Part shown: in pieces, positions 40,603 through 59,466 of the stretch | How the letters are laid out: every line of letters begins with the position of its first letter | Numbering within the stretch: position 1 is the first letter of the stretch | NCBI GenBank assembly: GCA_026645875.1 | Contig: JAPKMQ010000001.1 | Coordinates: 1-59,466, forward strand | Reading direction: 5' to 3' | From: Longilinea sp. | GTDB lineage: Bacteria > Chloroflexota > Anaerolineae > Anaerolineales > Anaerolineaceae | Length of the DNA: 59,466 bases | Notes under the pieces: generated by a model | What the model was told of the DNA's origin: nothing | What the model saw: the letters and a program-made list of their open reading frames with translations, nothing else | Databases searched by the model: none | Position numbers and translations under genes: made by a program

Positions 40603-43008
40603 TTACAACCAGGCTTCCACCTGAACGTCGCCAGCCTGCGCGGGCAGCGGAATGAGCGCGCCCTGAATTTCCAGGCCATCCACCAGCAGCCGCCGGATGC
40701 CCTTGCTGGCGTGCCGCGGGTTATGCACGCGGATGTGATAGCGGCTGCCGCGGAACTGGCGCGTCACCTCGAACCCGTTCCACTGCGGCGGGATGCACGG
40801 ATCGAGGCGCAGCCCGCCGTATTCCGGTCGCAGCCCAAGGATGTATTGTGTCCCAGCCTGGTAGGCCCAGGCAGCCGTGCCCGAAAGCCAGGAATTGCGT
40901 GCCAGCCCGAACTGGGGATGTTCGTCGCCAAGGATGTTTTGTGGATACACGTAGGGCTCGCACTCGTATACTTCAATCAGATCATTTCGCGCAGCTGGGT
41001 TGATCTGGTGGTAATACTCATAGGCGCGGTCGCCCCGCCCCAGCTTCGTCTCGGCGATTACCGCCCAGGGGTTGGTGTGCAGGAAGATCCCGCCGTTCTC
41101 TTTGGCACCGGGCGGGTAGGTAGTGATTCCGCCGACAGACGGATCAAACCCATCGTAACCCGGTGCGCTCAGCTTGAGCCCGTAGCGCGTGTTCAACCAT
41201 TCCCGGGCCGAGTCCATGGCCACCTCGCCACGTTCAGGCGCAGCCAGGCCTGAAATCACCGGCCAGGTCTGCCCGTTCAAATGAATCTTGCCGGCATGGT
41301 TGTGCTGAGATCCAATCGGGCTGTCGTCGGCATCCAGGTAACTCACGTACCACTTACCGTCCCAGGCGATTTCCTCGACGCGCACCCGCAGGCGGACGAA
41401 TTCCTGCCGGTAAGCTCGAGCCATCTCTGAATCCCCCAATGCGTCGCACAGGGCAGCCATTTCCTGCAGCGCACAAGCGTACAAGTTGGCCGTGAACAGC
41501 GATTCGGCGCCGGTGGGCAGGTTGATGGTGTCATTCCAATCTGCAAAGCCCAGCAGCGGCAACCCATGCACACCCAAATCCTGCCGGGTAAAGTCCAGCG
41601 CGCGCCGCAGGTGCTCCAGAACTGTGCCCGCGTCCTCAACCCGGCCTTTACTGTCATTGGGATAATACGGCAGGACCACGTCCAGAAAGACCATATCGCC
41701 CGTTTCCTTCAGGTACGCGGTCACAGCGAGAACCGCCCACAGATGGTCGTCGCTGTAGTAATGCGGCCGGTCATCGCGTTCCAGCGAATCGCCTTCACTG
41801 GCGACCATGCTGAGCGGATTGAACTGGTGCATGGCCGAGCCGTTTTGGCGCTGCACGCTGAGAAGCTTGCACAGCAAGGCGCGGGCCGTTTCCGGCGCGC
41901 TGGCCAGCACCGCCATCACGTCCTGCGAGCTGTCGCGGAAACCGATGCCGCGCGCGCCGTAGCCGAGTTGGTAGAGCGACAGGTAGCGCGACCATTGGGT
42001 GGTGATCCAGCACTGTCGTGGGTTGTGCACGTTGATCATGCGGTCGAAATACGCATCCGGGGTACGCGCCTGCAGCGTCGAGAGGTGCCGGTCCCAGAAG
42101 CGCGCCAGCCCACTGAACGCCGCATCCACCGCTTCAGGGTCGCGGAAACGGCGGATGGTCGTGCCGGCATCCTCCAGGCTGGCCGCCTGCCCCAGCAGCG
42201 TGGTAAACCGCACCGATTCACCGGGCAGAAGCGTTCCCAGCCGCAGCAACAGCGCCGCGATGTTGTCGCCGCGCAGCGCCTCGTGGTTGCCTAATTCCTC
42301 CTGCTCCAATACCAGCGGCCGCTGCCAGCTTCCATAACCGTTGGCCCCCAGGAAGGCGCGCCGGTCGGTTTCAAACGAACTGGCCTTGAGGTTGGCTGTG
42401 AAATAATTCATCTGCGTGCCGCGCAGCATGAAGGGATACTGACACAGCACAGTGCAGCCATCCAGCAATTCGGCACGCGATTGCATCGTCTGAGGCACCC
42501 AGTCGGCGTTGGTGAGTTGCTTGAGCGCGTCCGGGTGGGTATATTCCACCACCGGCAGCGCGTCCACCTGCACCGCCACCTCGCCCAGGTTGGTGATGCA
42601 CACATCGCGGATCTCCACCGGCGCGTCGTGAGGGACAAAGACGGTGATTTCGCAGCACAGGCCTTCCAATTCGCTGCGCCAGCGCGAATAGCCCAACCCG
42701 ACGCTGCACTCAAAATGGTCCAGCGGCAGCAGGGTGGGTACAAAAAACGGCGAATAAACGCGCTGTCCTCCTTTGGCGCGCACGCGCAGGTACATCGTTT
42801 CACCCTTGAATTCACCATCTGGCATTTGCGAGATGTACTTGGTGATGCGATTGAGCGCCGGGTCGCGCGCGCAAAGCAGCGCGCCGCCGGTGTGATCCAC
42901 AAAGCCGCCAAAGGCCAGCGTGCCGAGATAATTGATCCATTTCACCGGCGTGCGCGGATCTGTGATAACGTACTCACGGTGTTGGTCGTCAAAATAGCCG
43001 AAGTTCAT
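40603..43008 (-). CDS. GH94 glycoside phosphorylase, cellodextrin/chitobiose phosphorylase-like
   Basis: GIGFRDSSQD, ADWND, KENGGIFLH, WLSGTA. Confidence 0.88.
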   Translation of the reverse strand: MNFGYFDDQHREYVITDPRTPVKWINYLGTLAFGGFVDHTGGALLCARDPALNRITKYISQMPDGEFKGETMYLRVRAKGGQRVYSPFFVPTLLPLDHFECSVGLGYSRWRSELEGLCCEITVFVPHDAPVEIRDVCITNLGEVAVQVDALPVVEYTHPDALKQLTNADWVPQTMQSRAELLDGCTVLCQYPFMLRGTQMNYFTANLKASSFETDRRAFLGANGYGSWQRPLVLEQEELGNHEALRGDNIAALLLRLGTLLPGESVRFTTLLGQAASLEDAGTTIRRFRDPEAVDAAFSGLARFWDRHLSTLQARTPDAYFDRMINVHNPRQCWITTQWSRYLSLYQLGYGARGIGFRDSSQDVMAVLASAPETARALLCKLLSVQRQNGSAMHQFNPLSMVASEGDSLERDDRPHYYSDDHLWAVLAVTAYLKETGDMVFLDVVLPYYPNDSKGRVEDAGTVLEHLRRALDFTRQDLGVHGLPLLGFADWNDTINLPTGAESLFTANLYACALQEMAALCDALGDSEMARAYRQEFVRLRVRVEEIAWDGKWYVSYLDADDSPIGSQHNHAGKIHLNGQTWPVISGLAAPERGEVAMDSAREWLNTRYGLKLSAPGYDGFDPSVGGITTYPPGAKENGGIFLHTNPWAVIAETKLGRGDRAYEYYHQINPAARNDLIEVYECEPYVYPQNILGDEHPQFGLARNSWLSGTAAWAYQAGTQYILGLRPEYGGLRLDPCIPPQWNGFEVTRQFRGSRYHIRVHNPRHASKGIRRLLVDGLEIQGALIPLPAQAGDVQVEAWL

Positions 43009-43039
43009 TCGGTCCACTCCTCGCTGGCCGCTCCAGACC

Positions 43040-45484
43040 TCACGAAAGGATGGCCAGCACGCTCACCTCGCGCACACCCTCCGCGGGGATGGGAATGACA
43101 TTACCAGTCACCGGCAGGCCGTTGACCTGTAACTGCACCTGGTTGCCACCGCCGCGCCGTTCCACATGGATTTTATAGGTCACGCCACGGTACAGGCGCA
43201 GCAGGTCCACTTCCTTCCATGCCGTGGGGATGGCAGGCGCAATTTGCAGCCCATCCAGGGTCGGCCGCACGCCCAGGATCCATTGCGAGATGGCGGTATA
43301 ATTCCAGGCCGCCGTACCGGTGAGCCACGTATTCTTCGCCTCGCCAAAGGTGGGCGCTTCCTTGCCAGCGATGGTCTGTGCGTAGACATACGGCTCGCCG
43401 CGGTGCACGTCGCTGACCGCCTCGCGCGCTGATGGATTGATACGCAGGTAGTAGTCGTGCGCCTGATCGCCGTGCCCCAGGCTGGCCTCAGCCGCCATGA
43501 TCCACGGGTTGGTGTGGCAGAAGACGCTGCCGTTTTCTTTGTAACCGGGCGGGTAGGAGGTGATTTCGCCCAGGTTGAGATAATAATGCGTGAAGGCCGG
43601 GTGCAGCAGGACGATACCGTGCTTCGAGGCCAGGTGTTGGCGCACTGAGGCCAGCGCCTGTTCGGCGCGGCCATCGGCCGTGCCCAACCCCGCCAGCACG
43701 CAAATTCCCTGGGGCTCGATGAAGATTTTGCCTTCATCGCACAGCCTTGAGCCCACCGGCTGCCCCAGCGCGTCATAGGCGCGCAGGAACCACTCGCCAT
43801 CCCAGCCGTGTTCCATCACGGTCACGCCCATCTTCTGGGCCGAAAGCCGGTAGAAATCCGCGTCGGCGCGCCGGCCATAATGCCGCGATAACACTGCCAT
43901 TTCGTTCGCTGCCAGCACAAACAACCCGCCGATAAAGACTGATTCGGCGACTTTGCCCTCCCGATTGGTGGTGGTCTGGAAGGACTGGCCAGGCGTTTCG
44001 GAGAAGCAGTTCAGGTTCAGACAATCGTTCCAATCGGCGCGCCCGATCAAGGGTAGCCCGTGCGGTCCCAACCGGTCGAGCGTGTAGCGCAGGCTGCGCT
44101 GCAGGTGCTCATAGAGCGGCTGCTCGCTGCCGGGCTGGTTGTCGTACGGCACCAACTCCTCAAGGATGCCCCAGTCGCCGGTCTCCTTGAGATAGGCCGA
44201 AACCGCCAGTACCAGCCAGAGCGGATCGTCGTTAAAGTCGCCGCCCACATCGAAGTTGCCGCGCTTGGTAAGCGGCTGATATTGGTGGTAGGCGCCGCCG
44301 CTGGGCAGTTGCGTGGACGCCAGATCCAGGATGCGCTGGCGCGCCTTGGCGGGGACCATATGGACGAAACCGAGCAAATCCTGGTTCGAATCGCGGAAAC
44401 CCATGCCGCGGCCAATCCCGGATTCGAAGTACGAGGCCGAGCGAGACATATTGAATGTCACCATGCACTGGTAAGCATTCCAGATATTCACCATGCGGTT
44501 GGTATGCTCGTCTGGTGTGCTCACCTGAAAAACGCTTAGCAACCTGTCCCAATGCCGGCCCAGTTCCTCGAAGGCCGCGTCCACCGTCTGGGGTTTGAGA
44601 AAACGGTCAATGACCGGCTGAATAGCGCGCTTGTTGACCGTTTGCGTTCCGGCGGGGTCGAATTTCTGGTCGCGCGGATTTTCGGCGTAGCCCAGCAGGA
44701 AAATGACCGAGCGGCTTTCGCCCGGTTGCAGGGTCAACTGCACGTGATGCGAGCCAACAGGCGCCCAACCGTGCGCAATCGAATCCATCGACCTGCCCTC
44801 GGCTACCGCGCGCGGCCGGTCCCAGCCGTTGTAGGCGCCCAGGAAGGCCTCGCGCTGTGTATCAAAGCCGGCCAGCGGCTCGGAACAGGCAAAATAGGCA
44901 AAGTGATCGCGGCGCTCGCGATATTCGGTCTTGTGGTAGATGACGCTGCCCTGCACCTCCACCTCGCCGACGTTGAAGTTGCGCTGGAAGTTGGTGGCAT
45001 CATCCAGGGCATCCCACAGGCAAAATTCCACCGCCGAAAAGAGCGACAGCCGTGCGGTTTGATCCCGCCGGTTGGTGATTTGCGCCTGCCACACCTCCAG
45101 GGTCTGCCCCAACGGAACAAAGTACCGCGTCTCGGCCTGAATGCCCTGATACGCAGACGAAATGACCGTGTAGCCCATGCCGTGCCGGCAGGCATAGGCA
45201 TCCAGGTCGGTTCGCGTAGGCTGCCAGGTGGGCGACCAGAAGGAACCGCTGGCATCATCGCGCAGGTAGAGGTAGCGGCCGCCCGTGTCGGCGGGAACGT
45301 TGTTATAACGGTAACGCGTCAGGCGGCGCAAACGCGCGTCGCGGTAAAAACAATACCCGCCGCCCGTGTTGGAAATCAGTCCGAAAAATTCTTCGCAGCC
45401 CAGGTAATTGATCCAGGGCATTGGGGTGTCAGGACGCTCAATGACGTATTCGCGCCGGGTATCATCAAAATGGCCGTATTTCAT
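43040..45484 (-). CDS. cbp: GH94 cellobiose phosphorylase
   Basis: MKYGHFDD..REY, SRSASYFESGIGRGMGFRDSNQD, ADWNDCLNLNCFS, WLTGTAAW. Confidence 0.9.
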   Translation of the reverse strand: MKYGHFDDTRREYVIERPDTPMPWINYLGCEEFFGLISNTGGGYCFYRDARLRRLTRYRYNNVPADTGGRYLYLRDDASGSFWSPTWQPTRTDLDAYACRHGMGYTVISSAYQGIQAETRYFVPLGQTLEVWQAQITNRRDQTARLSLFSAVEFCLWDALDDATNFQRNFNVGEVEVQGSVIYHKTEYRERRDHFAYFACSEPLAGFDTQREAFLGAYNGWDRPRAVAEGRSMDSIAHGWAPVGSHHVQLTLQPGESRSVIFLLGYAENPRDQKFDPAGTQTVNKRAIQPVIDRFLKPQTVDAAFEELGRHWDRLLSVFQVSTPDEHTNRMVNIWNAYQCMVTFNMSRSASYFESGIGRGMGFRDSNQDLLGFVHMVPAKARQRILDLASTQLPSGGAYHQYQPLTKRGNFDVGGDFNDDPLWLVLAVSAYLKETGDWGILEELVPYDNQPGSEQPLYEHLQRSLRYTLDRLGPHGLPLIGRADWNDCLNLNCFSETPGQSFQTTTNREGKVAESVFIGGLFVLAANEMAVLSRHYGRRADADFYRLSAQKMGVTVMEHGWDGEWFLRAYDALGQPVGSRLCDEGKIFIEPQGICVLAGLGTADGRAEQALASVRQHLASKHGIVLLHPAFTHYYLNLGEITSYPPGYKENGSVFCHTNPWIMAAEASLGHGDQAHDYYLRINPSAREAVSDVHRGEPYVYAQTIAGKEAPTFGEAKNTWLTGTAAWNYTAISQWILGVRPTLDGLQIAPAIPTAWKEVDLLRLYRGVTYKIHVERRGGGNQVQLQVNGLPVTGNVIPIPAEGVREVSVLAILS

Positions 45485-45561
45485 ATTTTTCTACCTGTCA
45501 GAAATGAATGAATGCACTGAAAAACGGATGGGTTTGAAGCATTGGATCGAATTGGGAGTTA

Positions 45562-45590
45562 TGGAAGCGCTCCCAACATTTATTATAACA
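45562..45590 (-). promoter_or_regulatory. Extended -10 promoter with LacI-family (CelR/CebR-like) operator
   Basis: Minus strand TG-T-TATAAT (45590-45582), then TGGGAGCGCTTCCA (45575-45562). Confidence 0.75.
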
Positions 45591-45730
45591 ACATTCTGCG
45601 AAAACGCATCCGCTTTTTGTGGATCTTTGCGATCAGAAAATTGCGGTAAACTTCCCGCGTACGCCCGGCAGCCGTCCAGAAACCCTGCCGAGGACTGTCC
45701 CAGACGGTATAATACAGATAGGAGCATGCC

Positions 45731-47354
45731 ATGACCGCTAAACCTGCCTGGCTGGAAACAGCCGTCTTTTACCAGATCTACCCGCAAAGTTTTTCGGATT
45801 CCAACTCCGACGGCGTCGGCGACCTGCCGGGCATCCTGGCCAGGCTGGATTACATCCAGTCGCTGGGCGTCACCGGCATCTGGATTAACCCGTGCTTTGC
45901 CTCCCCCTTCCAGGACGCCGGTTACGATGTCAGCGATTATTACCGCATCGCGCCGCGCTATGGCACCAATGCCGACCTGCAAAAGTTGTGCGCCGAAGCC
46001 GGAAAGCGCGGAATGCGCGTCCTGCTGGACCTGGTGCCCGGGCACACCTCCATCGAGCATCCCTGGTTCCAGGCCTCCTGCCAGCACGAGCGCAACGCTT
46101 ATACCGATTGGTTCGTGTGGACCGATTCGCCCTGGGCCCCGGCGCCTGCCGGTATGCAGAACGTGCGCGGCTACGCCGAACGGGAAGGCTCGTACATCAC
46201 CAACTTTTTCTACTTCCAACCTGCGCTCAATTACGGCTTTGCCGTGCCGCAGGAACCCTGGCAGCAGCCGATGGACGCGCCCGGCCCTCAGGCCGTGCGT
46301 GCCGAGATGCGCAAGGTGATGAAGTTCTGGCTCGACCTGGGTGTGAGCGGGTTCCGCGTGGACATGGCCGGCTCGCTGGTCAAAGGCCCCGGCGGGGGTG
46401 AGGCCACCGCGCGCTAGATCCGCGCGCTTCTGGAGCGAAATCCGCGCCTGGTTGGACCAGGACTACCCGGAGGCCGTACTGGTGGCCGAATGGGCACAGC
46501 CGCACCTAGCCATCCCGGCCGGCTTTCACATGGATTTCATGCTGCCCTTTGGCACACCGGGCTACATCTCGCTGTGGCGCAAGGAACACGGCGACGGCGG
46601 CAACCACGACCCCTACGGCGCCAGCTACTTTGACCCCTCCGGCCGTGGCAACATCAACGAATTCCTCGACAATTACCTGTTCCATTACAATCGAACCAAA
46701 GAGCAAGGGGCCATTGCCATTCCCACCGGCAACCACGATTCCGGCCCGCGCATCGCCACGGGCCGCAGCGTGGAGCAGGTCGAACTGATTTACCTGTTCC
46801 TGCTTAGCATGCCGGGCACGCCTTTTATCTACTACGGCGACGAGATCGGCATGCGCTCGGTGGACGGGCTGCCCTCAAAGGAAGGCGGCTACCAGCGCAC
46901 GGCCATCCGCACGCCCATGCAGTGGGACGGCAGCCCCAATGCGGGCTTCTCCGGCGCGTCAGCCGAAAAGCTTTACCTGCCGATCGATCCCGACGCTGCC
47001 CGGCCGACTGTTGCCGCGCAGGAAACCGACCCGGCCTCGCTGCTGCAGCGCGTACGCCGCCTGATCTCACTGCGCAAGGCACACCCGGCGCTGTGCGCCA
47101 GCGGCGAGTTTGAGGTGCTTCACAAAGGCGCCACCGGTTATCCTTTCCTCTTTAAGCGGACGGCAGACGGAGAAAGCATCCTCGTAGCGCTCAACCCGTC
47201 CGCGCAAACCGTTGAGGCTTGCTTACCCGCAGAATACTTTTCCAACGTGCCCCAGGCGCTTTACGGCCATCCGCAACCCTTCTCGCGCGCCGACGGCGGC
47301 TGGAAACTCAGCCTGCCTGGCGTTTCCGGCGGCGTTTACCAACTGTTGGATTAA
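45731..47354 (+). pseudogene. GH13 alpha-glucosidase/alpha-amylase-family gene interrupted by a 13-bp insertion (real or assembly artefact)
   Basis: 5' ORF has DLVPGHTS and GFRVDMA; 3' ORF has VAEW, NHD and YYGDEIGM. Removing 13 bp at 46416-46428 gives one 536-aa ORF. Confidence 0.8.
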
Positions 47355-51491: not shown

Positions 51492-51637
51492 GCTCGCCTC
51501 TTTGTTTCTAGAAATAATTCAGGGTAACATTGAGATTGTAACATAAGCGCCCATCAGAGCGCGCAACCATCCCTGCGGGAATGGGTTATCATCTAATATT
51601 GGTTCTCAAAACCTTACCAGAGGATTCTTACAACCCC

Positions 51638-53266
51638 ATGATTTCTCAAACACTCTCGTCCCACGGTCTGGCGGCCGGCATGCAAGGGCTGGGCTGGCAG
51701 GGACCCACTTCGGCGTTGGAATTAGAAGAAAAGGGCATGCTCCAGCGCTTGCTGGACCTGGGAAGCCCACTCTGGGCTGTCTCGGTAGGCAATCGCACCG
51801 CGCTGACCGCGGCTGGAAACCTCACGGCTGCTCCCGGCGACGCAGCCCTGCTGGCGTTTGCGCCAGCCGTGCCGCTCGAATCGCTGGGCGACCCCGCGTT
51901 TTGCGCCACCTACGGCACGCGCTACGCTCTCTACGGCGGGGCGATGGCCAATGCCATTGCATCGGTGGAGATGGTCATCGCGCTCGGCAAAGCGGGCATG
52001 CTGGGTTCGTTTGGCTCGGCTGGCCTGGGCACTGAGCGCATCGAGGATGCCATCAAGCAGGTGCAGGCCGCCCTGCCAAATGGACCGTATGCCTTCAACC
52101 TGATTAACAACCCCTTCGAGCCGCTCATGGAGCAGCGCGCCGCCGACTTGTTCGCGCGCTACCATGTTCCGGTGGTCGAAGCCTCAGCCTATCTCGGCAT
52201 CACCCTTGGGCTGGTGCACTACCGCGCCGCGGGGCTCAGCCGGGCAGCCGACGGCAGCGTGACCATCGGACACCACATCATTGCCAAGCTCTCGCGCAAG
52301 GAAGTGGCCAAACGATTCCTCTCGCCCGCGCCGCAGGACCTGTTGGACCAACTGGTGGCGGAGGGCAAAATCACCGCCGCTCAGGCCGAAATGGCCGCGC
52401 TCGTCCCGATGGCCGACGACATCACCGTCGAGGCTGATTCAGGCGGTCATACCGATAACCGCCCGCTGGTCGGGCTGCTGCCCACCATGATCGCGCTGCG
52501 CGACGAGCTTCAGGCGCAGTTTCACTATCCCGTGCCAGTGCGCATCGGCGCCGCGGGCGGCATCAGCACCCCGCAAGCCGCGCTGGCGGCCTTCATGATG
52601 GGCGCGGCCTACGTGGTGACCGGCTCGGTCAACCAGGCCTGCGTCGAGGCCGGTGCATCCGCGCACACCAAGGCGTTACTGGCGCAGGCTGAAATGCCCG
52701 ATGTAGCCATGGCGCCGGCCGCCGACATGTTCGAGATGGGCGTGCGCGTGCAGGTGCTCAAGCGCGGTACGCTCTTCGCCATGCGTGCATCAAAACTGTA
52801 CGAGCTGTATTCGCGCTTCAACGCCTGGGAGGAAATCCCGCTCGAAGAGCGCACCCGCCTGGAATCCACAGTTTTCAAGCGCACTTTCGATGAGATTTGG
52901 ACCGACACCGTGCAGTTCTTCCGCGAGCGCGACCCGCGCATGGTCGAGCGCGGCGAAAAGGACGCCCGCCAAAAGATGGCGCTGGTCTTTCGCTGGTACC
53001 TTGGGATGTCTTCGCGCTGGTCCAACCGCGGCGAGCCTGGCCGCGAGATGGATTACCAGATCTGGTGCGGGCCGTCGATGGGCAGCTTCAACGACTGGAC
53101 GCGCGGCACCTACCTGGCTGAACCTGCCAACCGGCGTGTGGCCGACGTGGGGCTGCAAATCCTCACCGGAGCGGCCTACCTGGCCCGCCTGCGCGCTCTG
53201 GCATTGCAGGGCATTCGCCTGCCCGCCAGCCTGGACATGTACCGGCCACAGTCGCCGTTGCTCTAA
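51638..53266 (+). CDS. pfaD: PfaD-family FMN-dependent trans-acting enoyl reductase
   Basis: GAMANAIAS, VEASAY, AKLSR.EVA, EADSGGHTDNR, MAPAADMFEMG, DYQIWCGP. Confidence 0.93.
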   Translation: MISQTLSSHGLAAGMQGLGWQGPTSALELEEKGMLQRLLDLGSPLWAVSVGNRTALTAAGNLTAAPGDAALLAFAPAVPLESLGDPAFCATYGTRYALYGGAMANAIASVEMVIALGKAGMLGSFGSAGLGTERIEDAIKQVQAALPNGPYAFNLINNPFEPLMEQRAADLFARYHVPVVEASAYLGITLGLVHYRAAGLSRAADGSVTIGHHIIAKLSRKEVAKRFLSPAPQDLLDQLVAEGKITAAQAEMAALVPMADDITVEADSGGHTDNRPLVGLLPTMIALRDELQAQFHYPVPVRIGAAGGISTPQAALAAFMMGAAYVVTGSVNQACVEAGASAHTKALLAQAEMPDVAMAPAADMFEMGVRVQVLKRGTLFAMRASKLYELYSRFNAWEEIPLEERTRLESTVFKRTFDEIWTDTVQFFRERDPRMVERGEKDARQKMALVFRWYLGMSSRWSNRGEPGREMDYQIWCGPSMGSFNDWTRGTYLAEPANRRVADVGLQILTGAAYLARLRALALQGIRLPASLDMYRPQSPLL

Positions 53267-53292: not shown

Positions 53293-53317
53293 CCGGCGGG
53301 TCAAGACCCGCCGGTTT
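53293..53317. terminator. Bidirectional terminator candidate
   Basis: CCGGCGGGT-caag-ACCCGCCGG between convergent pfaD and PPTase. Confidence 0.7.
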
Positions 53318-53320
53318 GAT

Positions 53321-54031
53321 TCAAACGCGCAGTTCTTGAACGTGCAGCGCTGAGAAGTTCAGGGCCTGACCGCACACAGCCAGCGTGATGAGGAATTCGC
53401 CAGCCGGGGTCCAGCCCGCCCACCAGTCCAGGTCCGGCCGCGACAGGCAGCGGACGGTCAGGCCGCGCCAGCCGTCACTTTCTTCATGAATGGCTATGCG
53501 CAACACCTCAACGGCGCGCGTATCCAACCGCAGGCCCCTGCCCAGCGCTTTCAGCATGGCTTCCTTGGCGCTCCACACCAGCACGGCATCCCGTTCCCGC
53601 GCCGCGCCTGCGATTAACGTCTGCTCCGCCGCGGTGAAATAATCGCGCACGAACGCCGGGCTGCGCGGCTCAATGCGCTCCAGATCGATCCCCAGCCCCA
53701 CCCCCTGCGCGGAGGTCCACGCGCACACGGCCTGCCCGCCGCGGTGACTGATCGACAGGCATCCTGCCAGACGCTGATCGCCAATCAAAACATACGGCTG
53801 GCCATCGGCTTCATTGGAGATTGTCCATTTAATCGGCAACGTCCCGGCCAACGCCGGAACCGCAGCGGCCAGCAGCCGCTTGGCCGTCCAGCGGCCCAGC
53901 AGCCATTCCTCACGCCGGCGCAGAAAGCGCATCTGCGCCAGCTTTTGCAACTCAGCATCCGAAAGGAAATCTTCCGGGGGGGCGCCGACTGAATCGCAGC
54001 GCATCCAGGCAATTTCAACAAGTACTGGCAT
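53321..54031 (-). CDS. Sfp-type 4'-phosphopantetheinyl transferase
   Basis: FLS..E, GR..AK, LSISH, GIDLE, WSAKEAMLKALG.G. Confidence 0.9.
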   Translation of the reverse strand: MPVLVEIAWMRCDSVGAPPEDFLSDAELQKLAQMRFLRRREEWLLGRWTAKRLLAAAVPALAGTLPIKWTISNEADGQPYVLIGDQRLAGCLSISHRGGQAVCAWTSAQGVGLGIDLERIEPRSPAFVRDYFTAAEQTLIAGAARERDAVLVWSAKEAMLKALGRGLRLDTRAVEVLRIAIHEESDGWRGLTVRCLSRPDLDWWAGWTPAGEFLITLAVCGQALNFSALHVQELRV

Positions 54032-54096
54032 GATGATCGCATGAATGTGCGCAGCGGGTAGGGTACCGCTGCGCACATTATTCTTCCGTGAATCCG

Positions 54097-57000
54097 CTAC
54101 TTCCCCTGCACCAGCGTCTTGAACGGCTGGATCAGCTCGTCCTCAGCGCTGTAAGGCAGCGGACTGGTGCGGTAGTTGTCGATCTCAAGGTAAACGCGGC
54201 CTTTGGCATCCACCACGCGCGCGTCAAACATCAGATTGCCGTCCGCCGATCTGCCCGGCGTCACCTCAGCGAAGATGGCAACCCCATTGGTCTTCTGGCG
54301 GTGAATACGCAACTCACCGATCGAGCTGGGCAGCGCCAGCGTGCCGGTCAGGCCGGCCTCCCACACACCGGCGGTCTGCAGGCACAGCTCCAGCAGGATC
54401 GGCGTGCTGAGCAGGGCATGCCCCTGCGAGGTGATCGCCGGCAGGTTGCGCTGCAGCTTGCCAAGTACCACCTCGCCCGAGCGTTGCACACCCTCCAATA
54501 CCTGAAAAGCCGGCCCGTGGAAATATAATTTGTAGATTTCCGCAGCCTGAACAGTGTATGCCCCGTTCCAGTGCGGCGGCTTCACGGTCATTTCTTCCTG
54601 TGTTATGTGCGGCTGCAAAATGACCCGGCCGGAAAAGTGCCGCATGTGTTCTACGTTGCGATTATGCAGCAGCATGTCCGATTCCAGCAGCACATCGGCC
54701 GTCAATCCATCGGCTGTGCGCACCGCCCGCGCCTTCCACGACGCGCGCCGGGGTTGGTTGCGGTAGAACTTGAACGGCGCCAGGAATTGGATATCCTCCA
54801 GGCGTGCCACATCGAAACCAGCTTTGGCTGATCCCAGAACCGAGGCAATGTGCCTGGCGGCCACGCTGAAACCCTCGATTCCCATCACCCCCGGCAGCAC
54901 CGGAATGCCGTTGAGGGCATGATCTTTTAAAAACGGTTCGTTGTTCGGGTCCAGTTCCGCTTCCAGCAGCACGCCCTCGTTCAGGCTCATGCCAGTCACG
55001 CGGCTCAGCATCGTGTGGATGGGCTTGCCGTCACGCAGCGCGCGGTTGGCCCGCTCCAGGTCCAGTCCGCCCTCCGCGCTGACCGGATGATCCAGTTGCC
55101 CCAGCGCGCCTGCCAGCACCACTTCAGACACTATGCCGCGTTCCAGTTCGGCGCGGACCAGAGGCGCAGCTGCTTGCGGGTCGAGCATCTCGATGCCGGC
55201 CATCTGCATCAGGCGCGGGATGTAGCCGCGCGCGGCCATGCCCACCTCAGCCCATGCGCCCCAGTCCAACGCCACGGCATGGATTTCAGGGTGTTCCATC
55301 CGGACGGCTGCGACCATTCGGGCGGCCAGGTCGTTGGCGGCGCTGTAGTCGGTCTGCCCGCCGTTGCCAAAACGTCCGGCGATCGAAGTGAAAACGGCCA
55401 GATGCCCAGGCAACGAACCGCGGTTTTCCAACGCCTTCCACAGGTGGAACAGCCCGCCAGCTTTCACCGCCACCACCTGGCGGAATTCTTCGACCGGCTT
55501 GCTCTCCAGTTTGCGGCTGTGGTCAATCCCGGCGGCATGAATCAGCACATCCACCCGGCCTTCGGCGTCCAGCACCTGCTGGATAGCCGCATCAACCGCC
55601 TTCGGAGAGGTTACATCACATGCGATGTAAACCGCCTTGCCGCCCATTTGCCGCACCTGAGCCATCGTCTCGATCGTTGCGGCAGCCCGTTCCAACGCGG
55701 CAAGTTTCGCATCCACCCGCGAGGGTGTGGCGCGTTCACCGGCATCGGCCAAGCGGCGTGCAATTTCACGTTTGAGTGCTTCGCGGTCGTTGCGCAGCAG
55801 CGCCAGGTCAGCATCCTGCGGCGAAGGCAGCTCCGACCGGCCCAGCAGGTAGAAGCGCCCGCGCGTCGCCCGCGCCAGGTCCTGCACCACCGGTGCGGTG
55901 ATGCCGCCGCTGCCGCCCGACACGATGAAGACAGCACCCTTAGGCAATTCTGCCATTACTTCGATTCCCGTCGACTGCGTTGAAAGGGCCTGCCCTGTAA
56001 GGGCTACGCCGAAGCGCAAATCGCCTTCCCGGCCGACCTCGACCAAAGACGAGTCGCTCAAGGTCTCTTCGATCAGGCAATTGGCAACCTGAGCATGGCT
56101 GGCAACGGATTCAAAATCGACCACCTTGACCAGCATGCCCTCGCGTTCGCGCGCAATCGCCTTGGCCAACCCGCGCGTGCTGCCGCTCATGGCAGCCGCG
56201 TCAGGTTGTGGCCCGTATCCGTGCAGCCCGCCCATGCGCGTGGCGCACACCAGGAAAGCTTTTTCAGGCAATCCCCGCAGCACACCATCCAGCGCGAACA
56301 GGCGCGTTTCAAGCAAATTATTCCACTCTTCGAGGTTCATTTCGGTTATTGCCGGTTCACCGTCCAGCCCCGGAAGGAAATAAACGCCGTCGAAAGGGCC
56401 TTCCTTTTGCAAGTCAAGTAATTTTTGCCGGAATTCATCCGAAGAATCCGGCTGCACTTTAACGACCGCTGCCTTGCGCCCGCGCAGCTTGCGCGCCAGC
56501 GCGACCGCCGCGCCGCCCTCGTCGGCCACCACCAGCACGCGGCTGCTCTCGTCCAGCGCCACGCCGGTCGGCAGGCATAGTTCCAGCCGCGGTTGCAACA
56601 CCGGAACGGGGATACGGCGGGAGATGGATGCATCATGAGGCGTGGAATGTGAATCGTGAGCCGTTTCTGCTAACGGTGAAGTATCTACTTCCGATTCATG
56701 CTTCACCTCTGCTTCACGTTTCAAGCCATCCTTCACAAACGACATCACTTTTGCCAGCGTATTGTAGTCCGACAGGCGCAGATCTTCCCTCCGTGGGATG
56801 CCGTAATTCTCGCGCACCGCGGCAAACAGCTCGGCCTGCTTGACCGTGTCAATGCCCAGATCGGCTTCAAGGTCGAGATCCAACTCGAGCATTTCCGGGG
56901 GGTAGCCGGTCTTTTCAGAAACAAGAGAGAGGAGATGCTGTTGGATTTCGGTATCGTGAATCGTGAGCCGTGAGTCGTGAATCGTTTCTGGAACCGGTGA

Positions 57001-59466
57001 GGTTTCTTCCTCCGGTTCACGCTTCACATCTTCACGCTTCACCCCTTCTTTTACAAACCCCATCACTTTCGCCAGCGTATTGTAGTCCGACAGGCGCAGA
57101 TCCTCCCTTCGCTGGATGCCGTAATGCTCGCGAACCGCGGCGAACAACTCGGCCTGTTTGACCGTGTCGATGCCCAGGTCGGCTTCGAGATCGAGGTCTA
57201 ACTCGAGCATCTCGGGTGGGTAGCCGGTCTTTTCGGAGACAAGGGTGAGGAGATGCTGTTGGATTTCGGAATCGTGAACCGTGAGGCGTGAGTCGTGAAC
57301 CGTTTCTGGAACCGGTGAGGTTTCTTCCACCGGTTCACGCTTCACCTCTTCACGCTTCATACTGCTCACAGCCCACATAGTCGGCCCCTGGCCGTACTGC
57401 CACACGGATTTCCGCGGTTCGTGCTGCGGTGCGCCCAGGTCGCAGATGCGCAGCGTGTGTTGAACCACCTCGGTCTCTGCGTGGTCATACCCGGCCACAG
57501 CCGCCATCCAGCGGCTGTATGCCTGCACGTCGATGCGCTCGCCCACGCCGGGCACCCGGCGGGTCAGCGACATGGCAATCTGCGAGCCAAAGCCCGCCCC
57601 CAGCCGCAGCGCGAATTCGGGCTGGTACGTCCCGCCGCGTGAGAGGTTCAGGTCGCCCAGCTCGGGGTCTGGGTCAAAGCCGTCATCGATGTGCGCAATG
57701 GGCGGCACCTGGCCGGTTTCCAACGCCTTGACCGCCACCACGTCCTCGACGCCTACACCCATGGTATGCCCGGTAAAACCCTTGGTATTTGAAACGATCA
57801 CCTGGTTGGCCTGCGGGCCAAAGGTGGAACGCAGCGCGTGGATCTCAGCCGCTGCCGATCCGCCGCGCGCCGGGGTGTAGGTTTCATGCGACATGAACAT
57901 CATACTGCCGGCCATTTCCGCGCGCTTCAAGCCAAAGCGCTGCTCGGCCACCGACACCAGCCGTTCCATCACCTCGCTGATGTGCTGCACGTTCAGACGC
58001 GTGCCGTGATATGCACTGTTGGCAATCTGGGTGGAGAGAATCTCGCAGATGGCGCGTACGCCGCGCTCGCGGGCTGCGTCTTCGCTTTCCACCACCAGCG
58101 CGGCCGCGCCCATGCCCATGATCATGCCGTTGCGGCGGCGGTCAAAAGGCAGCGCTGCCATGCGCAGGTTCTCCTCGGTGGTGGTCGCGCCGCTGGCCAG
58201 CAGACCGGTGCCGATCCAGTTCACCAGGTTGCCGTCAGTCACGTCGTCGCCGGCGATGACCACCACGCGGCGGCAGCGCCCGGTGCGGATCCAGTCTTCG
58301 GCAATACTGACCGCGTGAGTGGTGGTGGCGCAGGCGGCATTGACATAGGTGTTCGGGCCGCGCGCGCCGATATACTCGGCAAATTGCGAATGGCCCATCG
58401 CCAGGATGCGGAAGATGAAACGCCGGTCAAAGTGATAATCCAGCTTGGCCAGTTGCGCTTCCAACTCTAGCACGCGCTGGTCCAGCGCCTGCCGCACTTG
58501 TGCCTGGTCCGCGAATTGGGCCTGCATGGCGCGCACCTCTGCCAGTTGGTTGGTCAGCGATTGGTGCTCCGAGAAGCGCGCCGATTCTTCCGCCAGCCGC
58601 TCCACGCCCGGGAAGGCTGAACCGAAGATCACGCCGGTCTCATCCGCCAGCGCTTCCGGCAGCATCCAGCGGTCGGGCAGGTACGAGCCCGTGCTGGTGC
58701 GCTTGTATCGCATCACCAGCGGGATGCCCGCATCGCGCAGCGCCTCCACCCCGGCGGCAATGGCAAGCTGGGTGGAAATGTCGGTGGCTTCCACGCGCTC
58801 GAGCGGCACACCGAATTCGGCTGCCAGGTCAAAGTCACCGCTTTGCCCGGCCAGTTTCACCGTCTGATCCAGCGAGTCGATGGTCACCATCTGGGCGCCA
58901 GACTCGCTTTTCTCCAGGCGGGTCACGCGCCGTTCCAGCATGGCGGCGCGGGCCTCATCTGGCAGCGGTTCAATCATCTGTTCGCCGCGCAGAATGCGCG
59001 CCACATTATCTTCCTCAAAGACGTGCTTGCCTCTGCCGGGCAATCCTAACCCCGCGCCAGTGATCACCACCGAGCCAGTCAACGGCAGGCGGCCGTCGGA
59101 AACCGCGGTCGGTTCTGGAGTGGCAACCACCGAAATCTCCAGCGGCAGTTCGCGCTGTTCCATGCTGGCACGCGGCCCCACCCCAGCTGCATACAACCCG
59201 GCCAGGGCTTCATTGAAGCTGGTGCGCGCACCCTTGCGCGGATGGTTGGTCGCCACAATGGTGATGCCCTCGGTTTCTTTGAGGATATCGGTCGTCAGCG
59301 CGCTCAGCACGCGCTTGGGACCCACTTCGGCGAACACGCGCGCGCCCTGTTCGTACAGGGTCTGCACGCCGCGGATGAACTGCACCGGCGATGCCACCTG
59401 CCGGGCCAGGATATCGAGAACTTCTTCTTTGCCGGTCGGGTACAGCCCGCCGGTCACGTTGGCGAC
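54097..59466 (-). CDS. PfaA-like iterative type I PKS/FAS, 5'-truncated: (AT)-KS-ACP-ACP-KR-DH
   Basis: Frame is open to the window edge (VANVTG). AT end SPVQF...EVGP; KS NAAC, HET, KGFTGH; two LEADLGIDTVK ACPs; KR GGSGGI and GQTDYSAAN; DH H.L.G.PVLPG. Confidence 0.9.
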   Translation of the reverse strand, partial: VANVTGGLYPTGKEEVLDILARQVASPVQFIRGVQTLYEQGARVFAEVGPKRVLSALTTDILKETEGITIVATNHPRKGARTSFNEALAGLYAAGVGPRASMEQRELPLEISVVATPEPTAVSDGRLPLTGSVVITGAGLGLPGRGKHVFEEDNVARILRGEQMIEPLPDEARAAMLERRVTRLEKSESGAQMVTIDSLDQTVKLAGQSGDFDLAAEFGVPLERVEATDISTQLAIAAGVEALRDAGIPLVMRYKRTSTGSYLPDRWMLPEALADETGVIFGSAFPGVERLAEESARFSEHQSLTNQLAEVRAMQAQFADQAQVRQALDQRVLELEAQLAKLDYHFDRRFIFRILAMGHSQFAEYIGARGPNTYVNAACATTTHAVSIAEDWIRTGRCRRVVVIAGDDVTDGNLVNWIGTGLLASGATTTEENLRMAALPFDRRRNGMIMGMGAAALVVESEDAARERGVRAICEILSTQIANSAYHGTRLNVQHISEVMERLVSVAEQRFGLKRAEMAGSMMFMSHETYTPARGGSAAAEIHALRSTFGPQANQVIVSNTKGFTGHTMGVGVEDVVAVKALETGQVPPIAHIDDGFDPDPELGDLNLSRGGTYQPEFALRLGAGFGSQIAMSLTRRVPGVGERIDVQAYSRWMAAVAGYDHAETEVVQHTLRICDLGAPQHEPRKSVWQYGQGPTMWAVSSMKREEVKREPVEETSPVPETVHDSRLTVHDSEIQQHLLTLVSEKTGYPPEMLELDLDLEADLGIDTVKQAELFAAVREHYGIQRREDLRLSDYNTLAKVMGFVKEGVKREDVKREPEEETSPVPETIHDSRLTIHDTEIQQHLLSLVSEKTGYPPEMLELDLDLEADLGIDTVKQAELFAAVRENYGIPRREDLRLSDYNTLAKVMSFVKDGLKREAEVKHESEVDTSPLAETAHDSHSTPHDASISRRIPVPVLQPRLELCLPTGVALDESSRVLVVADEGGAAVALARKLRGRKAAVVKVQPDSSDEFRQKLLDLQKEGPFDGVYFLPGLDGEPAITEMNLEEWNNLLETRLFALDGVLRGLPEKAFLVCATRMGGLHGYGPQPDAAAMSGSTRGLAKAIAREREGMLVKVVDFESVASHAQVANCLIEETLSDSSLVEVGREGDLRFGVALTGQALSTQSTGIEVMAELPKGAVFIVSGGSGGITAPVVQDLARATRGRFYLLGRSELPSPQDADLALLRNDREALKREIARRLADAGERATPSRVDAKLAALERAAATIETMAQVRQMGGKAVYIACDVTSPKAVDAAIQQVLDAEGRVDVLIHAAGIDHSRKLESKPVEEFRQVVAVKAGGLFHLWKALENRGSLPGHLAVFTSIAGRFGNGGQTDYSAANDLAARMVAAVRMEHPEIHAVALDWGAWAEVGMAARGYIPRLMQMAGIEMLDPQAAAPLVRAELERGIVSEVVLAGALGQLDHPVSAEGGLDLERANRALRDGKPIHTMLSRVTGMSLNEGVLLEAELDPNNEPFLKDHALNGIPVLPGVMGIEGFSVAARHIASVLGSAKAGFDVARLEDIQFLAPFKFYRNQPRRASWKARAVRTADGLTADVLLESDMLLHNRNVEHMRHFSGRVILQPHITQEEMTVKPPHWNGAYTVQAAEIYKLYFHGPAFQVLEGVQRSGEVVLGKLQRNLPAITSQGHALLSTPILLELCLQTAGVWEAGLTGTLALPSSIGELRIHRQKTNGVAIFAEVTPGRSADGNLMFDARVVDAKGRVYLEIDNYRTSPLPYSAEDELIQPFKTLVQGK
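56725..57360 (-). repeat. Tandem duplication of a 318-bp linker+ACP unit; a partial third linker extends to about 56630
   Basis: Equivalent Thr codons at 57163-57165 and 56845-56847; near-identical protein with many synonymous differences. Confidence 0.9.

Follow-up and report, generated by a model that had tools for sequence, protein, structure and literature searches.

The closest described relatives of the gene studied here are the Type R secondary lipid synthases, which were catalogued by Shulse & Allen 2011 (PMC3098273) in Koribacter, Solibacter, Elusimicrobium minutum and Roseiflexus. As set out in the main text of that paper, they follow the order KS-MAT-KS-like-ACPn-KR in one pfaA homologue (KS, ketosynthase; MAT, malonyl acyltransferase; ACP, acyl carrier protein; KR, ketoreductase), with three to six ACP domains over five genomes, a downstream phosphopantetheinyl transferase (PPTase) with the motif hShxH and acetyl-CoA carboxylase (ACC) genes as neighbours. 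A gene of this kind lies at the end of the window, i.e. the whole stretch of DNA analysed (59,466 nucleotides of Longilinea sp., contig JAPKMQ010000001.1), and both of its ACP domains carry threonine (Thr) at the acceptor position for phosphopantetheine, which is serine (Ser) in the known carriers. Comparative evidence suggests, with a probability of about 85% in our estimate, that this Thr is naturally phosphopantetheinylated in Type R synthases by the linked PPTase. The words 'threonine' and 'serine' are absent from the main text of PMC3098273, which does not give the product beyond calling it a secondary lipid. The family is already catalogued, and its Thr acceptor residue is undescribed in the literature searched. 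No paper on Thr phosphopantetheinylation was found there either, subscription journals being outside its coverage; papers that matched related terms deal with a Thr following the Ser.

Other known systems resemble parts of the locus. PfaA of polyunsaturated fatty acid (PUFA) synthases and PigH (PDB 5y08) have tandem ACPs with KTGY...DLG(I/V)Dx, KS-acyltransferase (AT), KR and a PfaD-type enoyl reductase (ER) as well, but their acceptor is Ser, no second ketosynthase (KS2) stands between AT and ACP, and PfaB/C-like genes are separate. Sfp of Bacillus subtilis (PDB 1qr0, 4mrt) aligns to the PPTase of the window in SH, GIDxE and WxxKExxxK (E 5e-4), although overall identity is low and the Type R enzymes carry features of their own. 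In the carriers of fatty acid synthases (FAS), polyketide synthases (PKS) and non-ribosomal peptide synthetases (NRPS), the Ser that binds phosphopantetheine is taken to be invariant, and its exchange for Thr serves as an inactivating control. To our knowledge, the known substrates of PPTases are Ser carriers. Covalent FMN is attached by ApbE to Thr or Ser of NqrB, NqrC and RnfG as a phosphodiester-linked cofactor, Ser and Thr being interchangeable. With another cofactor, transferase and fold, this flavinylation is a chemical precedent only.

Threonine at the acceptor position of both ACPs

The carrier region of the synthase comprises the following features.

54097..59466, minus strand: Type R megasynthase, 3' part (1789 aa; the contig end leaves the 5' side open), with the end of AT, KS2, ACP, ACP, KR and dehydratase (DH)
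57058..57255, minus strand: ACP domain 1 (PF00550), by family match, predicted model and alignment to solved ACPs
57163..57165, minus strand: Thr codon ACG at the phosphopantetheine acceptor position of ACP1, from the sequence
56746..56937, minus strand: ACP domain 2 (PF00550), by family match
56845..56847, minus strand: Thr codon ACG at the acceptor position of ACP2, from the sequence

Both ACPs read LEADLGID-T-VKQAELF, as a preliminary description of this DNA had stated. Over 76 codons, 19 synonymous and 6 non-synonymous differences separate the two copies, in line with the synonymous differences it had pointed out. Contigs assembled from two DNA runs, which belong to two studies, span both Thr codons with zero differing letters; one of the runs may be the source sample. 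A sequencing error or strain quirk was ruled out by this agreement and by the presence of Thr across the relatives (see below). The synthase gene was also present in five RNA runs from three studies, where contigs are no proof of transcription and none of the long RNA pieces listed extends over the Thr codons.

In alignments with PigH and other solved ACPs, the Thr falls on the acceptor Ser and the register is unshifted. An AlphaFold model (pLDDT 93) has helix II begin with this Thr, and the top Foldseek matches of the ACP model were all ACPs with a TM score of about 0.8-0.9. The predicted model thus has the ACP fold with the acceptor position at the start of helix II, while the residue itself is not Ser. 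No column of 262 Type R ACPs holds a second conserved Ser or Cys (top shares 35% and 7%, respectively). The alignment to solved ACPs together with this column survey rules out a shifted register as well as a different Ser or Cys of the domain as acceptor, and Thr at the acceptor position of both window ACPs is confirmed.

The 5' side of the gene was inspected for a Ser-ACP, as the preliminary description had proposed. KS1 and most of AT are located on another contig of the same genome (G000:C372), which covers the first 806 residues of P0001, a near-identical full-length copy. This protein of 2619 aa has the order KS1-AT-KS2-ACP-ACP-KR-DH without further ACP, and no Ser-ACP was found in P0001 or in G000:C372. 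Both P0001 and the window together with C372 show the Type R domain order (one pfaA homologue, KS-MAT-KS/CLF-ACPn-KR; CLF, chain length factor), and the downstream PPTase reads LSISH at the Type R hShxH motif (P1b'). These features identify the window gene as a Pfa-like synthase of 'Type R' (KS-AT-KS-ACPn-KR-DH plus PPTase). Its Thr-ACPs, the inserted KS2 and the lack of any FabA-type match in G000 set it apart from the canonical PfaA/PUFA synthases of Types A and B. Among named organisms, Longilinea (86% over KS2), Bellilinea and Anaerolinea harbour the nearest relatives, which makes Anaerolineaceae the probable family of the window.

Compared with the Type R systems of PMC3098273, the domain order, the downstream hShxH PPTase and the neighbouring ACC genes are common. 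No DH is listed in the main text of that paper, and the synthases there have three to six ACPs, whereas the window has a DH, two ACPs and a PfaD. As the relatives have one to six ACPs, the number is taken as descriptive of Type R and not as defining it; a locus titled Elusimicrobium minutum (L029; KS2 E 3.5e-158, 47% KS2 identity) has four Thr-ACPs. Additional Thr-ACPs between KS1 and AT or between AT and KS2 were observed in L002, L007, L008, L016, L042, L043 and L059. KS2 is called a CLF in PMC3098273; nonetheless, its Cys-His-His set is kept in Type R. Among the full-length Thr synthases, the Ser motif of AT is retained in 158 of 158, and in KS2 the His motif is present in 158 of 158 and the strict Cys motif in 128 of 158.

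The remaining features of the locus are listed here. They include the KS, KR and DH motifs and the PPTase gene directly downstream, all of which had been noticed before and were found present.

57487..59094, minus strand: KS2, second ketosynthase, with the Cys-His-His motifs NAACATT, SHETY and TGHTM
55246..55935, minus strand: KR domain, motifs GGSGGI and YSAAN
54151..55017, minus strand: DH domain, PKS-type, motif DHALNG.PVLPG
53321..54076, minus strand: PPTase, Sfp-like (PF01648, E 1e-18), with the catalytic motifs SISH, GIDLE and WSAKEAMLK
53293..53314, no strand assigned: 9-bp hairpin with a terminator-like score on both strands, between the convergent PPTase and PfaD genes, pattern match only
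51581..53266, plus strand: PfaD-like enoyl reductase, convergent with the synthase, by family match

The gap between the synthase stop and the PPTase is 20 nt, assuming the listed GTG as PPTase start. Farther away, at 40603-47354 on the minus strand, two large apparent glycoside phosphorylase genes were noticed from open reading frame (ORF) translations alone, together with an apparent gene of the alpha-amylase family that is split between two frames near 46400.

Threonine and serine across the family

A genome scan with the ACP region returned 80 loci, with ~2700 matching stretches estimated. The loci span Chloroflexota, Acidobacteriota, Myxococcota, Gemmatimonadota, Actinomycetota, Elusimicrobiota, Calditrichota and archaea. 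Thr was found in 269 of 269 of their ACP motifs, a count that is biased because the query itself contained the Thr motif, and sets selected by KS2 were relied on instead. The best 120 close proteins by KS2 gave 353 carrier matches, namely, 349 Thr, 0 Ser, 3 truncated and 1 degenerate. Among the best 150 representatives by KS2 (50% clustering, about 38-78% KS2 identity), 363 matches comprised 337 Thr, 13 Ser (11 intact), 5 truncated and 8 others in visibly degenerate domains. Homologues mostly carrying Ser, which the preliminary description had named as the outcome that would speak against its reading, were thus not observed in either set. When the intact motifs of these 270 proteins were pooled, Thr accounted for 685, Ser for 11 and any other residue for none (696 in total). 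All four ACN codons are used for Thr in the loci (ACG 131, ACC 96, ACT 25, ACA 20).

A KS2 tree was built with FastTree from 122 of the 150 representatives and the window, omitting rows without carrier motif or with short KS2 and using KS1-type domains as outgroup. Ser members were nested among Thr members at five separate places (P0242, P0171, P0225, P0226 and P0248). Under equal single-base changes from ACN, about 24% lead to Ser, which gives a rough p near 0.0008 for five of five. The 'ST' label of P0131 in this tree stems from a chance motif near the N-terminus and was not counted. Ser and Thr domains are mixed in one chain under one fused PPTase in P0225, G486, G443 and G607. Only hydroxyl residues appear to be tolerated, a pattern that fits a required hydroxyl.

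The residue at position +3 from the acceptor differs as well. Gln was found there in 928 of 930 distinct Thr domains compared to 5 of 15 Ser domains, in a pool that includes the 80 motif-selected loci, while canonical PfaA has Arg or Lys. Gln +3 covaries with Thr and is a candidate partner of it.

As a control, 20 other synthase loci of the window's taxonomic family were read and yielded 47 Ser, 1 truncated and 1 Thr domain. The Ser motif attributed to PfaA-type ACPs in the preliminary description was indeed seen here, as DLGIDSIKRVE in 47 of the 49 domains. The single Thr belongs to a Type R-like chain (L124, G375:C2) in which AT runs straight into one Thr-ACP and KS2 is missing, by either a true deletion or a misassembly. 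When metagenomes were scanned for the exact motif with residues other than Thr, using a pattern blind to AGY-coded Ser, 10 loci were returned that were all Ser. None of these had a KS2 match in the available stretches, and the longer ones were AT-ACP-KR-type synthases. From these comparisons, Thr is confirmed as a trait of the Type R family in bacteria and archaea.

The linked PPTase and its probable role in arming the carriers

The PPTase adjoins the synthase in 70 of the 80 loci, and five of the ten misses end at a contig edge within 21 bases of the carrier ORF. It is fused to the chain in 41 of the 150 representatives. Of these 41, 37 have Thr in all domains, one has Ser in all, one is mixed and in two no motif was read. 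In 106 Thr-linked PPTases, the catalytic residues are His in 104, Asp in 106, Glu in 103, Trp in 105, Glu in 106 and Lys in 106. The window enzyme has the Sfp-type set of His, D-x-E and W-x-x-K-E-x-x-x-K in a chain of ~230 aa. Type R PPTases furthermore share KRRxEWLxGRxxAK, ExRSxxF and GLxxDT, which are also present in both PPTases of Ser-bearing Type R chains.

The archaeal members were studied in 201 genomes of the Asgard phylum, to which a locus titled Heimdallarchaeota belongs; nothing on Asgard synthases was found in the literature searched. KS2 was detected in 38 of these genomes, and the synthase carriers comprised 93 Thr, 6 Ser and 8 degenerate domains, with two further genomes read separately. 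In 30 of the 38 genomes, no Ser carrier was found with PF00550 and TIGR00517, each stand-alone match being read, and the intact domains were all Thr. Beyond the synthase, 14 of the 30 show no match at all, and the other 16 encode a small ACP-like protein in which the acceptor Ser is absent. A PPTase is present in 36 of the 38 genomes, mostly within the synthase chain. The clearest case is G612, a single contig of 4.36 Mb with a 3819-aa chain of the order ER-KS-AT-KS-ACP(T)x5-KR-DH-PPTase, which holds the only PPTase match and the only carrier matches of that genome. Unless Thr is modified, it is difficult to see what an intact PPTase would do when it is fused to the chain and has no Ser substrate available.

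Some further observations were made on these archaea. The Asgard Type R synthase (L184-L218; G612, G486, G469 and others) is usually one chain of 3.2-3.8 kaa with the PPTase fused and ER often fused, and it sits beside carboxylase genes. Archease (L064) and CDC48 (L076) occur as archaeal neighbours of Type R. The ACP-like protein of the 16 genomes mentioned is conserved, stand-alone and 82-101 aa long, and E, K, N or D replaces its acceptor Ser (L225, L226, L228-L230, L232-L237, L249, L256-L259). Stand-alone KS2-like ORFs of about 500-560 aa were found away from the synthase in L219, L220, L222, L223, G557:C197 and G545:C190.

The mechanism we propose starts with the linked Sfp-like PPTase, which would transfer 4'-phosphopantetheine from CoA onto the acceptor Thr. 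Gln +3 is a candidate cis-determinant for the modification of this bulkier secondary alcohol. With the thiol arm in place, the Thr domains would function like any ordinary carrier, and the synthase, acting iteratively, would probably make the fatty acyl chains of the cell. AT would load malonyl units (ACC genes being frequent neighbours), KS1 and KS2 would condense, and KR and DH would process the chain. Enoyl reduction may be carried out by PfaD here and elsewhere by an acyl-CoA-dehydrogenase-like enzyme, FabI or a fused FMN-type ER. Modification of Thr by the cluster PPTase had already been suggested in the preliminary description, and it is supported by the comparative evidence, i.e. the conservation of Thr, the exchange for Ser only, the PPTase fusion and the genomes without Ser carrier. 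It also counts in favour that the synthase itself seems to be required, judging from its retained AT motif and its likely part in fatty-acid synthesis (see below).

Several points weigh against this. The N-termini of helices favour both Ser and Thr, which may contribute to the S/T pattern. The search for a PPTase residue or clade specific to Thr gave none, and the Ser-linked PPTases nest among the Thr-linked ones in a quick, poorly resolved tree with most deep forks open. The 'dedicated PPTase' of the preliminary description stands with respect to linkage and shared sequence features, and the co-occurrence with one PPTase clade that it had proposed to test did not emerge from this tree, as the enzymes of the rare Ser members fall among those of the Thr members. 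Some of the 16 Asgard ACP-like ORFs carry Ser or Thr one place upstream. Eight of the 38 Asgard genomes had to be set aside, namely, three with mixed S/T chains (G443, G486, G607), three with a separate Ser carrier ORF (G414, G453, G592), one with a degenerate Ser domain (G545) and one without carrier (G500). Since most Asgard genomes are incomplete bins of unstated completeness, absence in them means only 'not found'. Finally, E. coli ACP S36T cannot be modified with 4'-phosphopantetheine and is non-functional according to PMC3340395, and PMC13343975 uses S36T as a loss-of-interaction variant. AcpS-type enzymes, at any rate, thus accept Thr poorly. However, S36T is an engineered form of the same change, while Thr is the conserved natural state in Type R.

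A carrier in trans has to be considered for the window's own genome. G000 encodes a stand-alone Ser AcpP (C377), AcpS (C22) and two more small carrier ORFs, and a stand-alone Ser AcpP, which could act in trans, is present in 119 of 121 genomes of the window's family. The Thr domains might accordingly be structural or docking units, while the intermediates are carried by a free-standing Ser-ACP that either the cluster PPTase or AcpS has armed; the unmodified S36T is consistent with that as well. Yet AcpP is also present with Ser-Pfa or without any synthase and therefore does not track Type R, though it is available. A hidden Markov model built from the family found no stand-alone ACP in the 80 loci. 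An unmodified domain should moreover tolerate Ala, Val, Asn or Asp, none of which occurs in the 696 intact motifs, and 30 of the 38 Asgard genomes, including single-contig G612, lack a detectable Ser carrier despite the fused PPTase. A Ser-ACP elsewhere, the alternative offered in the preliminary description, is thus contradicted by the 5' part of the synthase and by 30 of 38 Asgard genomes and survives as a possible trans AcpP in the window genome. Overall, we consider it very improbable.

The S/T-only pattern itself shows the need for a hydroxyl and not the group carried. The Thr hydroxyl could hence be used without phosphopantetheine, either for acyl oxyesters or in a synthase working on CoA thioesters whose PPTase-like protein does another job. 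Against this, all CoA/Mg motifs are retained in the PPTase, which is also fused to the synthase, and the Ser versions resemble ordinary PfaA carriers. Decarboxylative Claisen chemistry by Cys-His-His ketosynthases also normally needs malonyl thioesters, and such a use of Thr appears very improbable. Least credible is an artefact or a dead enzyme, whether by sequencing error, a degenerate gene or conversion of ACN to Ser via recoding, mischarging or RNA editing. No support for it was found; the two DNA runs agree at both codons, the trait extends over many phyla and over all four ACN codons, the catalytic motifs are conserved, and the distribution of the synthase is complementary to that of FabF. 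It is already largely refuted. Phosphopantetheinylation of Thr by the linked PPTase remains the preferred explanation.

Probable role in fatty-acid synthesis

In G000, which is 90.6% complete, the synthase provides the only ketosynthase and AT matches, and FabA/FabZ was not found. One FabH-family match was set aside, as its neighbours make it read as HMG-CoA-synthase-type-like and not as FabH. Type R was present in 49 of the 121 genomes of the window's family and a Ser-ACP Pfa cluster with FabA-type DH in 28, with both in one genome. No PF00109 match in these 121 genomes looked like a stand-alone FabF (short frames were not each checked). A similar picture was obtained in 121 genomes of Elusimicrobiota, where Type R was found in 41, FabF-size matches only in 72, another megasynthase in 3 and nothing in 5. 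A FabF-size match was absent in 38 of the 41 Type R genomes and present in 72 of the 80 others; Fisher values for this distribution overstate the effect, as kin are not independent. Given that FabF is largely replaced in Elusimicrobiota and was not found in the window's family, Type R is likely to be the main fatty-acid synthase in both.

The gene neighbourhood was also informative. Carboxyltransferase genes were found within the locus in 42 of the 80 loci. The reductase slot was occupied by an acyl-CoA-dehydrogenase-like gene in 36, PfaD in 20 and FabI in 1, never by two together, and a fused FMN-type ER is present in some Type R chains. The acyl-CoA-dehydrogenase-like gene sits upstream of the synthase (e.g. 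L010:3443-5089), and its product is a candidate enoyl reductase. The carboxyltransferase neighbours and the filled reductase slot point to a complete de novo fatty-acyl synthase. In eight loci (L018, L034, L037, L045, L053, L057, L078 and L079), a single ORF of ~1600-1950 codons combining biotin carboxylase, biotin carrier and carboxyltransferase was observed between synthase and PPTase.

Two results speak against a primary role throughout. No KS match was found in 42 of the 121 genomes of the window's family, and in a phylum sample of 301 genomes, additional KS matches are present in seven of the nine Type R genomes that fall outside this family; the role is therefore not universal. The sample includes the unpublished genome G263, which gave just a weak match and supports none of the claims made here. 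The KS-free genomes may belong to fatty-acid scavengers, AcpP being kept in 119 of the 121. Leptolinea tardivitalis is said to have a PUFA-synthase-like fatty acid synthase and no FAS II. A report to that effect did not turn up in the literature search; if verified, it might anticipate the FAS role and perhaps the Thr as well.

Taken together, we lean slightly towards a wider picture in which O-phosphopantetheinyl-threonine is natural, a PPTase subfamily attaches the arm to carriers whose DT(V/I)KQ motif has co-evolved and the pair is insulated from AcpS. Many Anaerolineae and Elusimicrobiota would then use the self-activating type I synthase as their main FAS, and in about a fifth of the Asgard archaea sampled it would provide a carrier-dependent route to fatty acids. 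If Thr is modified as proposed, carriers scored as dead for want of Ser may be live, and the pair could yield an orthogonal PPTase/carrier system for labelling and pathway insulation. In practice, Sfp or AcpS alone may not suffice when Type R synthases are expressed. In two bacterial groups, the synthase seems to replace FAS II, and its presence in 38 of 201 Asgard genomes bears on carrier-protein fatty-acid synthesis in the closest archaeal relatives of eukaryotes.

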